Shown here piece by piece: positions 22,682-26,334 of a DNA stretch of 64,000 nucleotides (the first letter of the stretch is position 1; each line of letters opens with the position of its first letter). The notes under the pieces are model-generated. The model worked only from the letters and a program-made list of their open reading frames with translations, did not search any database and was not told the origin of the DNA. Both the position numbers and the translations under genes were made by a program. The stretch is from Alphaproteobacteria bacterium (lineage in GTDB: Bacteria; Pseudomonadota; Alphaproteobacteria; UBA828), in NCBI GenBank assembly GCA_965214705.1, contig CBDCCI010000001.1, positions 64,001-128,000 on the forward strand, read 5' to 3'.

Positions 22682-23094
22682 CTAATGCGCACTCGCTCGC
22701 ACCGTCGCGCCGGGAAGGCGGTCCCGATCGTGAGGGCGCGTGAAGTCGAGCACAGGCCCCTTGGGAACGATGCGGGAGGGATTCACACTGACGTGGCTCC
22801 CGTAATAGTGGCCCTTGATGTGCGCCATGTTCACCGTGTCCGCGACCCCTGGATACTGGTAAAGCTCCCGCAGGTAGTTGCTCAGATTGGGATAGTCCTC
22901 GATCCGGCGCTTGTTGCACTTGAAGTGCCCGACATAGACGGCGTCGAAGCGCACCAGGGTGGGGAAGAGCCGCCAGTCGGCCTCGGTGATGCTCGCGCCA
23001 GCCAGATAGCGATGCGCGCCCAGTCTCTCTTCCAGGTCGTCCAGGGTCGCGAAGAGTGCGTCGAAAGCGTCCTCGTAAGCCGCCTGCGACCGGG
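22682..23094 (-). pseudogene. yqjG: Glutathionyl-hydroquinone reductase (omega-class GST), C-terminal half
   Basis: RSQAAYEDAF, TEADWRLFPTLVRFDAVY.GHFKCN, HIKGHYYGSH..VNP. Confidence 0.92.
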
Positions 23095-23101
23095 AAAGGT
23101 T

Positions 23102-23143
23102 AAGGGTTGGGCAGGCTCTCTCTCGAGAGCCTGCCCAACCCTT
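23102..23143. repeat. Perfect 19-bp-stem hairpin at the downstream end of the element
   Basis: AAGGGTTGGGCAGGCTCTC-TCTC-GAGAGCCTGCCCAACCCTT. Confidence 0.95.
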
Positions 23144-23405
23144 TTGAACGAAGCCGCGGGCCACGAGAGGCGAAGTTGAGCTATGTGGAAAGTGCGCTGA
23201 TGTCAGCGTCAGGCGGCATCCACCGGCAGCAGAGTTGCGCATAAAATCGACGCTCGCGCCGGTCTTTCGGCAGGCATGCGGGCGCACGCTGCGAGGACTG
23301 AGCGGGGTGTGAGCCGAGGGCTGTCAGCCCGGCTCAAGCGGAGACAGGTTCGGTCGTGCGTCGGCGCTTTGGCGCCGTTGCGCGGGGCCGAAGCGAGCGG
23401 GCGTC

Positions 23406-24647
23406 TCACGGTTTCCCCCTGTGGGTCGGCGGCAGCGCCGGCGGGCCGCGCGTCGAGCGGGGCTCATGGCGGCGGCGGATTTCGCGGACGAGGCGCATGA
23501 CGCCGCCGCAGTGGGGGCAGGCCACGGGCGCGGTGCCGATCTCGGGCTCTTCGTCGGGCTCGGCCCGAGCGCCGTCCACGCTTCCCTCGGGGGCGGCGCA
23601 GCCGAGGGCGCCGAGAGCCTGGCGTGCTCTCTCCAGCGTGCTGGCGCGGCAGCCGTTGGCGAGGATGCCGAAGTAGCGAATGCGGTGCATGCCGTCCGGC
23701 AGGACGTGCCTCAGGAAGCGGCGGATGAACTCGTCGGCGCTCACGGTGGCGATGCCGTAGCGCGGCTTTCTCTGCCCCGGCGCCTTGGGCTTTCGGTGGC
23801 GGAAGGAGACCGTCTCGCCGTCGAAGGAGACGATGCGGCTGTCGGAGATGGCGATCCTGTGCGTGTAGTGCGAGAGGTACCGGAAGACCTGCTCAGGCCC
23901 GCGGAAGGGCCGCTTGGCGTAGACCACCCAGTCCCTGGCCCGGGCGGCGGCAAGCGTGGCGTGGAACTCGCCGGGATTGGCGAGGTGGGCGAGGGTGCCG
24001 TGGAACTCCAGGTCCCCCCGGCCGTGGGCGCGGGCGAGCTCCTCGAGGAAGAGGCGGCGGAACAGGCTGCCGAGGACCTTGACGGGGGCGAGGAAGGTGG
24101 TGCTCCCCGTCTTCCACTCGCCACTGTCTACGTCGAAGCCCGCGTTGGGCACGACCACGTGCAGGTGCGGGTGGAAGCGGAGCTTCTGATCCCAGGTATG
24201 GAGGACCGCGGTGCCGCCGATGCGCATGCCGCCGTGGCGGGGATCGGCGGCGATGGTGCGCAGGGTCTCGGCGACGGCCCGGAAGAGGATGTCGAACACC
24301 ACCCTGCGGTTGCAGAAGGCAATGGCGGCAACCTCCTTGGGCAGGGTGAAGACCACATGGAAGTAGGGCACCGGCAGGATGTCCCCGGCGCGCTCCTCGC
24401 TCCAGAGGTTGGCGGCGAGACCCTGGCAGGTGGGGCAGTGGCGGTTGCGGCAGGAGTTGAAGAGCGGATGCTCGCGCCCGCAGCCCTCGCAGGCGTACAT
24501 GTGGCCGCCGAGCACGGCGGTGCGGCACGCCTCGATGGCGCCCATGACCTTGAGCCGGGCGGCGTCGATGCGCCCTTTGTGGCGCTCACGGAAAGCGGCG
24601 CCGGCGCGGCGGAAGATCTCCGCCACGCCCGCGCGTTCGGCCTCCAC
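23406..24647 (-). CDS. IS91-family rolling-circle transposase
   Basis: Zn domain CRT..LGG...SCRNRHCPTCQ, YFHVVFTLP, LHTW...HPHLH (HUH), YLSHYTHR (Y2), C-terminal CPHC. Confidence 0.95.
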   Translation of the reverse strand: MEAERAGVAEIFRRAGAAFRERHKGRIDAARLKVMGAIEACRTAVLGGHMYACEGCGREHPLFNSCRNRHCPTCQGLAANLWSEERAGDILPVPYFHVVFTLPKEVAAIAFCNRRVVFDILFRAVAETLRTIAADPRHGGMRIGGTAVLHTWDQKLRFHPHLHVVVPNAGFDVDSGEWKTGSTTFLAPVKVLGSLFRRLFLEELARAHGRGDLEFHGTLAHLANPGEFHATLAAARARDWVVYAKRPFRGPEQVFRYLSHYTHRIAISDSRIVSFDGETVSFRHRKPKAPGQRKPRYGIATVSADEFIRRFLRHVLPDGMHRIRYFGILANGCRASTLERARQALGALGCAAPEGSVDGARAEPDEEPEIGTAPVACPHCGGVMRLVREIRRRHEPRSTRGPPALPPTHRGKP

Positions 24648-24653
24648 GCGCCG

Positions 24654-25532
24654 TCAGTTGCGCAACGCTGCGAAGCCTGAGATCGGGTGGTCGAGGCCCT
24701 CGAACATCTTGCCGGTGACGCGGGCGTAGTGACGGGTCGTGTTCGCGCTTCGATGGCCGAGCATGTCCCGGATCACCTCGATATCGCCGCCGCGCTCGAG
24801 GAGATGGGTCGCCGCCGAATGGCGCAGGCAATGGAAGGTGTAGCTGCGGTCGAGCTCGGCAATGTCGCGCGCCCTCCTGAAGGCGGCCTGCAAGGTCTCC
24901 GTTGCGATGGGCCTGTCGAGCGAGACGCCGTAGAAGAGCCAGCTCGTCGGACGCGGCCAGATGTTCCTGTAGTAGACGCGCAAGTAGTGGATGACGATGT
25001 CCGGCAACGGTGCCATTCTCTCGGTGCCGCCTTTGCCGGAGGGGATGTGCAGCAGCTTCTTCTCCGACAGGATGTCGCCGACCTTGATGGCCAAGGTCTC
25101 GGAGATGCGGAGCCCGCCGCCATAGCCGGTGACAATGGCAGCACGGTGGCGGAGGTCGGGTGTCGCAAGGATGAGGTGCTCGACCTCCTGCTCCGACATG
25201 TAGCGCGGCAGCTTGCCGGGCTTCTTGCGGGAGCGCAGGCCGGCGACATGGTCAGGCCAGCCGAGTGTGTCGATGTAGAGGAAGTTCAGCGCGGCGAAGG
25301 AGACGTTGGTCGTGCCCGGACTGAGCCCCTTGTCGATCCGCCCCAGGTACCACTGGCGCACCTGCTCGGCGTCGAGCTCGTCCGGCGAGGCGTCGTAGTA
25401 CCTGGCCAGGTTCTTGATCTCGCAGATGTAGGCCTTGGACGTGCTCGCGGCCAGATTGGCGATGCGGAGCTGCTCCTCCATGCGCTGGCGAAGAGGGGTG
25501 ACGGTGTTCGTGTCGCACGCGGTCCCGGTCAT
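24654..25532 (-). CDS. Tyrosine recombinase/integrase associated with the IS91 transposase
   Basis: TPLRQRM N-terminus, YGGGLRISE, GKG, HCLRHSAATHLLE, LGH....T.HY. Confidence 0.93.
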   Translation of the reverse strand: MTGTACDTNTVTPLRQRMEEQLRIANLAASTSKAYICEIKNLARYYDASPDELDAEQVRQWYLGRIDKGLSPGTTNVSFAALNFLYIDTLGWPDHVAGLRSRKKPGKLPRYMSEQEVEHLILATPDLRHRAAIVTGYGGGLRISETLAIKVGDILSEKKLLHIPSGKGGTERMAPLPDIVIHYLRVYYRNIWPRPTSWLFYGVSLDRPIATETLQAAFRRARDIAELDRSYTFHCLRHSAATHLLERGGDIEVIRDMLGHRSANTTRHYARVTGKMFEGLDHPISGFAALRN

Positions 25533-25760
25533 TATCGATCTCCCTGGATCGCGACGGCGCGCCGCCGGACCGATCCGGCGACGGTCCGTCGCAGGGGTCG
25601 ATGCTAACCACTGGTGATCGGGAGGCTGCTGGGGATCCGCCACCCGACGGGCGGAGCGCCACTGACGCAACCGGGAAGCGAACGCACAGAACAAACGGCA
25701 CCCGCGACGCCTCGGAAATGAATGAACTCTACGCCGCTAACTCCGCGTAGCGGCTTCGTT

Positions 25761-26334
25761 CAAAGCCGGTCTTGTAGACGCCATTGTTGACGTGCTCGTA
25801 GATCGGCTCGTTGACCGCATCGATCTCGTCCCTGAGCGCCGCTGGGTACAAGTCCGGCTCGCCGTCGCCCCAGCCATTGAACGCCGTGTTGAGCATCCGA
25901 ATGATTTCGGCGGATTCGTTGTTGACTATGGTTCGCTCCCGCTTGTCCCAGAGCACGGGCACCGAGACCCGCCCCGTGTAGTCGTCCCGCGCCAGCTTGT
26001 AGACCTCCCGCAGAAACCGGGTGCCGTTGACGCTGTCGGGGATGCAGCCGGGGCCCTCGCTGAAGTGCCAACCGTCCTCACCCATGTAGGGGTCCACCAC
26101 CGAGACCGAGATCGCATCTTCGAGCCTGCACAGCGCGCGCACGATCATCGTCCGGTGCGCCCAAGGGCAGGCGTGCGAGACGTAGAGGTGGTAGCGCCCC
26201 GGCTCGGCCTTGAAGCCTGAGGAGCCGTCGGCGGTGACGGCGTTGCGGAAGGAGGTCGTGGCTCGCACGAAGCGCCCATCGGCTTCAGTCCTGTTGTCCT
26301 CCTTGTGCCACTCGCCGTCGATCATCGTGCCCAT
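25761..26334 (-). pseudogene. yqjG: Glutathionyl-hydroquinone reductase (omega-class GST), N-terminal half
   Basis: GRYHLYVSHACPWAHR, VPVLWDK...IVNNES, NNGVYKTGF then element sequence. Confidence 0.92.

Follow-up and report, generated by a model that had tools for sequence, protein, structure and literature searches.

A 2666-bp insertion that splits a Xi-class glutathione S-transferase (GST) gene at positions 23098-25763 of a 64,000-nucleotide stretch of alphaproteobacterial DNA (UBA828 lineage; contig CBDCCI010000001.1, positions 64,001 to 128,000; hereafter the window) is probably an intact and recently very active insertion sequence (IS). It would belong to a subgroup of the IS91 family that carries a gene for a tyrosine recombinase (YR), and would move by the ordinary rules of that family, its hairpin end serving as oriIS and its inverted-repeat (IR) end as terIS. 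The evidence for this reading comes from the borders of the insertion in the GST gene, from some ninety near-identical copies in the same genome, from the bases that flank these copies and their empty sites, and from the conservation of the two genes and of the end structures in diverged families. The window copy and the two GST halves that flank it comprise the following features.

22682..23097, - strand: C-terminal half of the GST gene (GST_C_2, 9.3e-19, within 22682-23095)
23098..23101, + strand: GGTT, which opens the element on this strand and is read as its AACC tail on the coding one; constant in 91/91 copies, whereas the two preceding bases vary
23102..23143: hairpin, putative oriIS palindrome, with arms at 23102-23120 and 23125-23143 (19 nt, 100% complementary) and a 4-nt loop
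23144..23157, + strand: inner IR copy TTGAACGAAGCCGC, complementary to the terminal 14 nt at the opposite end
23406..24647, - strand: IS91-family HUH/Y2 transposase, 413 aa (Y2_Tnp, 2.7e-54; Zn_Tnp_IS91, 4.3e-30)
24654..25535, - strand: Xer-like YR, 293 aa (Phage_integrase, 4.5e-33; SAM_4, 4.9e-12)
25733..25754, + strand: small palindrome on the terIS side (GCCGCTA, 8-nt loop, TAGCGGC), 9 nt before the end and followed by TTCGTTCAA
25750..25763, + strand: terminal IR copy GCGGCTTCGTTCAA, putative terIS end, the final AA being counted as the element's
25764..26334, - strand: N-terminal half of the GST gene (GST_N_2, 3.4e-12, within 25729-26334)

Borders of the Insertion in the GST Gene

The C-terminal GST flank was searched in 20 relatives and the junction was read in the seven best same-genus loci, all of which (7/7) carry a continuous GST gene of equal length. 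The empty site of the closest relative reads ...CGACCGGGAAAAGCCGG..., and the window corresponds to the sequence of this relative plus a 2664-bp core (GGTT...GTTC) plus one AA, so that no target bases are duplicated and the borders are known except for a two-nucleotide AA ambiguity. From this site, either of the two flanking AA could be assigned to the element, and nothing else is ambiguous; the target dinucleotide is taken as 23096-23097, AA on the + strand, the last two bases of the GST half beside the element. An earlier reading of the window, made from the sequence only, had already concluded that the split gene sets the boundaries to about 1 bp with no duplication, and apart from the AA ambiguity the seven empty sites bear it out.

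Copies in the Genome, Moving Unit and Target

We searched the 7.92-Mb genome (G000; three contigs, C1 to C3 in the coordinates below) for further copies. It holds 94 ends of the IR (terIS) type, 90 of which are followed by AA, and 84 canonical ends of the hairpin type, a number that rises to 91 when an anchor just inside the hairpin end is used; each of these 91 has GGTT, the hairpin, and the inner copy of the IR. An IR end lies at intact length from 58 of the 84 canonical hairpin ends, and 54 copies are exactly 2664 nt long, with both reading frames open in all of them and a median identity of 99.92% to the window copy. The flanks of the copies are unrelated to one another. In the contigs of public runs X1 and X5, the depth of the element is about 50-60 times that of the GST flank, and among 20 other species of the genus none carries this element at more than 81% identity.

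The bases on either side of these copies define what moves. Of 75 unique left flanks, 62 have AA immediately ahead of GGTT, the others having AG (5), AT (5), or TC (3) there, and 78 of 81 unique right flanks have AA immediately after GTTC. Near-identical empty sites exist in this genome for 17 insertions, 13 of which read left flank-AA-right flank at the empty site. Two insertions have AG as their left and AA as their right dinucleotide, and all their less similar empty paralogues carry AG; for one of the TC cases the closest relative reads GGTTTC-AAGACG, meaning that the core and one AA were inserted right after TTC. As the left AG is retained in empty sites, it is the target that contributes the left dinucleotide, and the right AA is part of the element. 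What moves is, in + strand terms, 5'-GGTT...GTTCAA-3' (5'-TTGAAC...AACC-3' when read along the coding strand), and it goes in 3' of the target dinucleotide. A 2-bp AA target duplication is rejected, since the left dinucleotide varies, the right one stays AA, and the empty sites carry the left one.

The target itself is not an arbitrary AA. When the 62 unique AA-type sites are set against all 447,436 genomic AA sites, they are enriched for C at -7 (36/62), G at -6 (43/62), and C at -3 (37/62), with p values of 2e-5 to 2e-7, and T at +8 is also enriched (27/62). The enriched upstream bases are those found at the same offsets in the element's own end, CGTTCAA, and the target would thus resemble the putative terIS end (CGnnCAA vs. 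CGTTCAA). In some cases, a copy immediately follows the terIS end of a second copy or of a member of a diverged family (family 3, described below), the junction reading GTTCAA-GGTT. A small palindrome surrounds the insertion point in the GST gene; a hairpin as a general feature of the target was nevertheless rejected, the flank tables showing none in common.

Structure of the Two Ends

A repeat search found the hairpin and the IR exactly as the sequence-only reading had described them, that is, a perfect 19-bp hairpin and an IR of 11-15 bp. The IR as found spans 23143-23157 and 25750-25764 (15 nt, 100%), and its intrinsic portion is 14 nt (23144-23157 and 25750-25763), the 15th base being GST DNA. 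The inner copy, placed by the same reading about 50 bp inside the other end, begins 46 nt inside the hairpin-side end. The terminal AACCTTT that it reported is element sequence in part only: AACC is constant, the next two bases (TT) represent the target dinucleotide, and the final T belongs to the GST gene. At the other end, the + strand shows the small palindrome and then ...TTCGTTC.

The hairpin is a built-in part of the element, neither captured flanking DNA nor a free repeat, because all 91 anchored copies carry GGTT, hairpin, and inner IR copy. The comparison of other copies' ends that had been suggested as a check of the sequence-only reading has therefore been made, and of the two options left open there, an intrinsic terminus formed by the hairpin and its AACC tail is upheld, whereas capture of the hairpin from flanking DNA is not, the flanks being unrelated from copy to copy. 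Neither is the hairpin found as a repeat independent of the element, its pattern having 94 matches genome-wide, in line with the number of element copies. More generally, the end structures are beyond chance, because the same ends occur about 90 times in the genome and recur in diverged families.

Folding of the junctions gives a further view of this arrangement. In a joined single strand, the two IR copies are predicted to pair and to extend the hairpin into a long stem, in which GGTT forms an unpaired 4-nt bulge next to the presumed cleavage point.

Several individual copies depart from the standard ends. The loop is inverted (GAGA for TCTC) in 9 of the 91 copies (e.g., C1:325747, C1:1688163, C2:493264, and C3:1787519), and a diverged copy at C1:465171 has matching changes on both arms of the hairpin stem, which argues for constraint on the hairpin structure. 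Outside the window, at C2:646525-646666, two copies stand head to tail in tandem, and their junction is a perfect palindrome with 37-nt arms, in which the GGTT bulge is filled by an extra AACC and the loop is inverted; the same AACCTTGAAC loose end occurs in a public run. This junction looks like the product of quasi-palindrome correction by template switching.

Transposase and Recombinase Genes

The two genes of the element lie close together on the - strand, the stop codon of the YR standing 6 nt ahead of the transposase start. The transposase scores 382.5 bits against the NCBIfam model for IS91 family transposases (NF033538; cut-off 125), and its residues H159/H161/H163 and Y257/Y261 as well as its cysteines are invariant across the three families of this genome, as are R143, K168, H235, R238, H261, and Y270 of the YR. 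The identification of the element as IS91-type with a tyrosine recombinase, proposed by the sequence-only reading, is thereby borne out by the domain matches of both genes. When compared with the second family, the ratio of nonsynonymous to synonymous substitutions (dN/dS) is 0.29-0.35 for the transposase and 0.38-0.64 for the YR, the latter range being inflated by upstream non-coding columns. A Pfam search returned no helicase domain, the only matches beside those of the YR being Y2_Tnp, Zn_Tnp_IS91, and a sub-threshold match to TrwC.

As for the affiliation of the YR, its best solved relatives are a XerC-like protein, XerD, and the integron integrase IntI4. It stays below every NCBIfam cut-off for Xer and integron recombinases (XerA, 143.6 vs. 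220; XerC, 134.4 vs. 335; XerD, 118 vs. 330; integron integrase model TIGR02249, 130.1 vs. 265). Its alignment with IntI4 is split, 32 residues of the query (182-213) standing against 72 in IntI4 (chain 174-245), so that the integron-specific segment is missing in the YR; the C-terminal tails of the two proteins do align (query 277-286, chain 309-318). Judged by these comparisons, the YR is Xer-like in sequence and appears to be neither a Xer orthologue nor an integron integrase.

ISfinder has IS91-family entries with an upstream tyrosine recombinase, such as ISAzo26, and a Mesorhizobium plasmid carries the two genes next to each other under the annotations "tyrosine-type recombinase/integrase" and "IS91 family transposase". 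A literature search over titles and the beginnings of abstracts returned nothing on the role of the recombinase in IS91-type elements, on the combination of IR and hairpin, or on the target rule.

Sister Families and Distant Relatives

The genome holds two further families with a recombinase and a transposase, namely, family 2, with a transposase about 80% identical to that of the window copy, and family 3, with 40% identity and about a dozen copies. The ends of family 3 follow the same design with another sequence (5'-TTGAACTGAGCCGCG ... CGCGGCTCAGCTCAA, T, a hairpin with a 13-bp stem, CAATTCA), and a comparable small palindrome stands ahead of ...TCAGTTCAA. Copies of family 3 (C1:1526488-1529101 and about 11 others) often adjoin a repeated palindrome of type TATGTTGAGCTCAACATA, which may be the preferred target of this family.

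Beyond this genome, a scan for relatives with one genome per species yielded 593 confirmed loci, the best 79 of which have transposases 41-78% identical to that of the element and come from Alpha- and Betaproteobacteria, Acidobacteriota, Planctomycetota, Gemmatimonadales, Syntrophomonas, Ignavibacteria, and others. Among these best 79 loci, a YR lies directly upstream of the transposase in 76, and two of the three exceptions start at a contig end. When the two non-coding ends are compared, about 30 of 64 assessable loci have a G-x-AC-[GT]-AA-x-CCGC repeat as their best IR (a count read from the table). Under a strict form of the motif, both expected places are occupied in 12/52 loci vs. 0/52 on the wrong strands, and in those 12 a hairpin comes after the inner copy.

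A Proposed Model of Transposition by IS91 Rules

To place the element within its family, we relied on a published account of IS91-type elements (PMC13181058, in part). According to it, the terIS side precedes the genes and bears a subterminal palindrome together with a tetranucleotide at which cleavage occurs (GTTC in IS801 and IS1294), and the oriIS side follows the genes, bears one or two palindromes, and abuts the target tetranucleotide. It also gives GTTC, CTTG, or GTCC as the targets of four tested members, with insertion by the transposase alone, without duplication, and through the bottom-strand circle only; it adds that IS91 needs an upstream coupled gene, orf121, for precise cleavage at terIS, and it counts only four IS91-type elements shown to transpose.

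The element shares with this family an HUH/Y2 transposase with a zinc-binding N-terminus, the HUH motif, and two catalytic tyrosines, as well as the lack of a target duplication and a single fixed orientation. Its two unlike ends, terIS-like upstream and oriIS-like downstream, also match those of the family at sequence level (PMC13181058, in part). The target would follow the family's likeness to the terIS cleavage site in kind (CGnnCAA vs. CGTTCAA), with the tetranucleotide itself represented in only 3 of the 75 unique flanks (TTC). The contrast that the sequence-only reading drew with classical IS91 ends, described there as lacking terminal IRs, was overstated, canonical members too having subterminal palindromes at oriIS and terIS, and GTTC at terIS (PMC13181058, in part). 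Differences exist nonetheless. Where IS91 itself has a short upstream gene (orf121) coupled to tnpA, the element has a 293-aa catalytic YR, and its transposase is only 23-28% identical to those of the IS91 members of Escherichia coli plasmids. Unlike canonical IS91, its terIS ends in GTTCAA, its usual target is AA (CGnnCAA) rather than GTTC or CTTG, and the last 14 nt of terIS are repeated in inverted form beside a perfect 19-bp oriIS hairpin.

The course of transposition that we consider most probable runs as follows, the moving strand, the assignment of enzymes to cuts, and the role of the YR being what we infer. The strand that moves would be the one antisense to the genes, that is, the + strand of the window. 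At the hairpin end, which lies downstream of tnpA and would be oriIS, the HUH transposase would nick directly 5' of GGTT, and replication would displace the nicked strand. A second cut would follow after GTTCAA at terIS, upstream of the genes, and closure would give a single-stranded circle. In single-stranded form, the last 14 nt of terIS would pair with the inner IR copy, forming a long stem that would carry the GGTT bulge and have the cut site at its base. The circle would then be inserted 3' of AA at terIS-like sites (CGnnCAA), without duplication and in one orientation. As our preferred guess, the YR would act on the palindrome of the joined ends, either to resolve head-to-tail multimers and circles or to aid termination as Orf121 does in IS91.

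A number of points weigh against this model. The moved strand has been assigned only through the likeness of the ends to canonical terIS and oriIS. No circle joint or other intermediate was seen in the public contigs of four runs, which cannot show rare forms, and no clear one-ended product was found when all pairs of copies were compared, the sole pair that shares only its hairpin-side flank lying in a repeat that also has empty copies. Once all copies had been masked, orientation showed no link to GC skew (four window sizes, p 0.29-1.0), a test that is uninformative given the weak GC skew of this genome; the link apparent before masking (34/11 vs. 18/31, p 2e-4) was rejected, as it was due to the element's own skew (0.112). 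Exceptions to the target rule also exist, 4 of the 17 empty-site cases being off the rule (among them one insertion of the core plus 4 nt, one of the core plus 3 nt, and one with GA) and four IR-type ends having no AA on the right. The target is AA, not the GTTC or CTTG tetranucleotide of the IS91 family, TTC ending only 3 of the 75 unique left flanks. The end design differs from the canonical one as well, judging from the layout of a canonical tandem on an E. coli plasmid (L108, 1713-bp period), whose large palindrome is found at the terIS side, 3 nt ahead of GTTC; an end-pairing IR was not seen in L108, the one canonical YR-less element examined. Finally, a model in which the transposase does everything gives no reason for the presence, across phyla, of a YR with all its catalytic residues.

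Alternative Readings of the Recombinase and of the Ends

One alternative is a division of labor between the two enzymes. The HUH transposase may make only the circle, and the YR may bind the folded joined ends and insert them by exchange of one strand at AA^, a reading that we hold tentatively and regard as rather unlikely. An integron integrase binds its attC site in folded form, and there are points of likeness to integrons: in both cases, a tyrosine recombinase gene stands beside a site that folds, when single-stranded, into two stems separated by unpaired bases, and the crossover comes after AA on the folded strand. When joined, the ends of the element would form a long stem whose bulge coincides with the cut site, the C-terminal tail of the YR aligns with that of IntI4, and the R-K-H-R-H-Y residues are kept in all three families, by a YR that stands upstream of the transposase in 76 of the best 79 loci, in many phyla, and that has a dN/dS below 1 against family 2 (0.38-0.64). 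On the strand that is cut, every conserved target base is 5' of the cut, by an arm-like sequence, as expected for a YR half-site, and the only YR-less canonical element that was examined does not have the IR design. The facts on target and junction fit the HUH enzyme equally, because both enzymes read the DNA 5' of their cut, and canonical IS91 members insert by the transposase alone into targets that equal their terIS cleavage site (PMC13181058, in part). The YR is, moreover, unlike the integron enzymes in that it lacks the IntI-specific segment, being about 40 residues short at that place, and in that it stays below the integron-integrase cut-off, while the targets are not attC or attI sites and have no hairpin in common. 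It is thus a possibility of low probability that the YR-carrying IS91 clade is a two-enzyme transposon, in which the joined ends fold in an attC-like way and the YR inserts or resolves them at half-sites that mimic the ends. If this were true, the end pairing common to these elements and to Helitron2/Helentrons would be a general way for Y2 rolling-circle transposons to join their ends.

The comparison with Helitron2/Helentrons, made by the sequence-only reading, also bears on polarity. Their ends are described as having an asymmetric terminal IR whose 3' copy lies 20-40 bp inside the end, plus hairpins, with TT as the target of Helentrons (PMC5148889, in part). Viewed on the coding strand, the element has in common with them a Y2 rolling-circle transposase, an asymmetric terminal IR, an end hairpin, a TT target, and no duplication (PMC5148889, in part). 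The form of the ends matches, as the sequence-only reading had it; a different mechanism or a kinship does not follow from it, the ends fitting the IS91 scheme. The likeness is one of form only, because the ends map onto IS91 polarity and no helicase domain is present. It is treated here as a likeness of design, possibly a shared solution for pairing single-strand ends, and not as membership. The element also differs from Helitron2/Helentrons in having neither a helicase domain, as in their Rep-helicase (RepHel) transposase, nor an endonuclease domain, as in Helentrons, in its bacterial host, in its separate recombinase gene, and in its likely polarity relative to the gene, which would be opposite to theirs. 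Should the polarity be Helitron2-like after all, the coding strand would move, with the IR end as origin and the hairpin, 4 nt from the 3' end, as terminator. We consider this improbable, even though the coding-strand layout equals the description of Helitron2/Helentrons (PMC5148889, in part) and the large hairpin of L108 lies just 5' of the terIS cut, as a rule of "big hairpin = terminator" would have it. The IR end on the + strand resembles a canonical terIS, with its small palindrome and ...TTCGTTC, and it lies upstream of the genes, like terIS in IS91, IS801, and IS1294, while canonical oriIS ends also carry palindromes (PMC13181058, in part for both); in addition, a helicase domain is lacking, and no flank carried past the hairpin end was found, the single candidate pair lying in a repeat with empty copies.

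That the hairpin would be foreign to the element, whether as captured flank, as a free repeat of the repetitive extragenic palindrome (REP) type, or merely as the transcription terminator of a neighboring gene, is extremely improbable and, as a sole explanation, refuted by its presence at the same distance from the end in 91/91 copies with unrelated flanks, by a number of genomic matches in line with the copy number, and by the diverged families having their own hairpin at the same place, although the T-rich bases that follow the hairpin on both strands (TTTT on the + strand, TTAACCTT on the coding strand) mean that a transcription stop function may be added.

Other Insertion Sequences and Genome Context

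The element lives in a genome crowded with nested insertion sequences, in which many of its copies lie inside other repeats and in which GC skew is weak. At 7.9 Mb, this genome exceeds those of all 20 other searched species of the genus (2.8-6.3 Mb).

Two other insertion sequences have a close association with the element. At least 17 copies of the element are split at an identical base of the transposase gene (e.g., C1:1393187-1394837), which corresponds to window position 24458 and is uninterrupted in the window copy. A 1650-bp insert that encodes an IS110-family (DEDD) transposase splits 10 of the 84 paired copies, and loose ends at the position equivalent to 24458 occur in three public runs. 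These observations point to a strongly site-specific homing of one IS into another at this base. The second is a 2102-bp IS with a DDE_Tnp_1 transposase (C1:3002173-3004274 and 14 further copies), which makes a duplication of about 6 bp of the type NTTAAN. Of its 15 listed copies, 8 occupy, in either orientation, the GTTAAG at the extreme end of the IS91-type element. Left ends of a "CG" class, which could have been taken for a carried-along flank, were rejected as such, as this class consists of this 2102-bp IS inserted in the tip GTTAAG. An Rfam search of the two foreign inserts gave no match.

Implications

Elements of the IS91 type move neighboring genes. Here, a natural burst of about 90 near-identical copies, together with dozens of matching empty sites, gives base-level rules for a branch of this family that has not been studied at the bench. 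These rules concern the precise termini, the likeness of the target to the terIS end of the element, and the repeat next to the hairpin through which the ends would pair. The window copy, with its defined ends and two small genes, is a ready substrate for transposition assays with mutants. It also frames the question of why a rolling-circle transposase keeps a catalytically intact YR as a coupled partner across many phyla.

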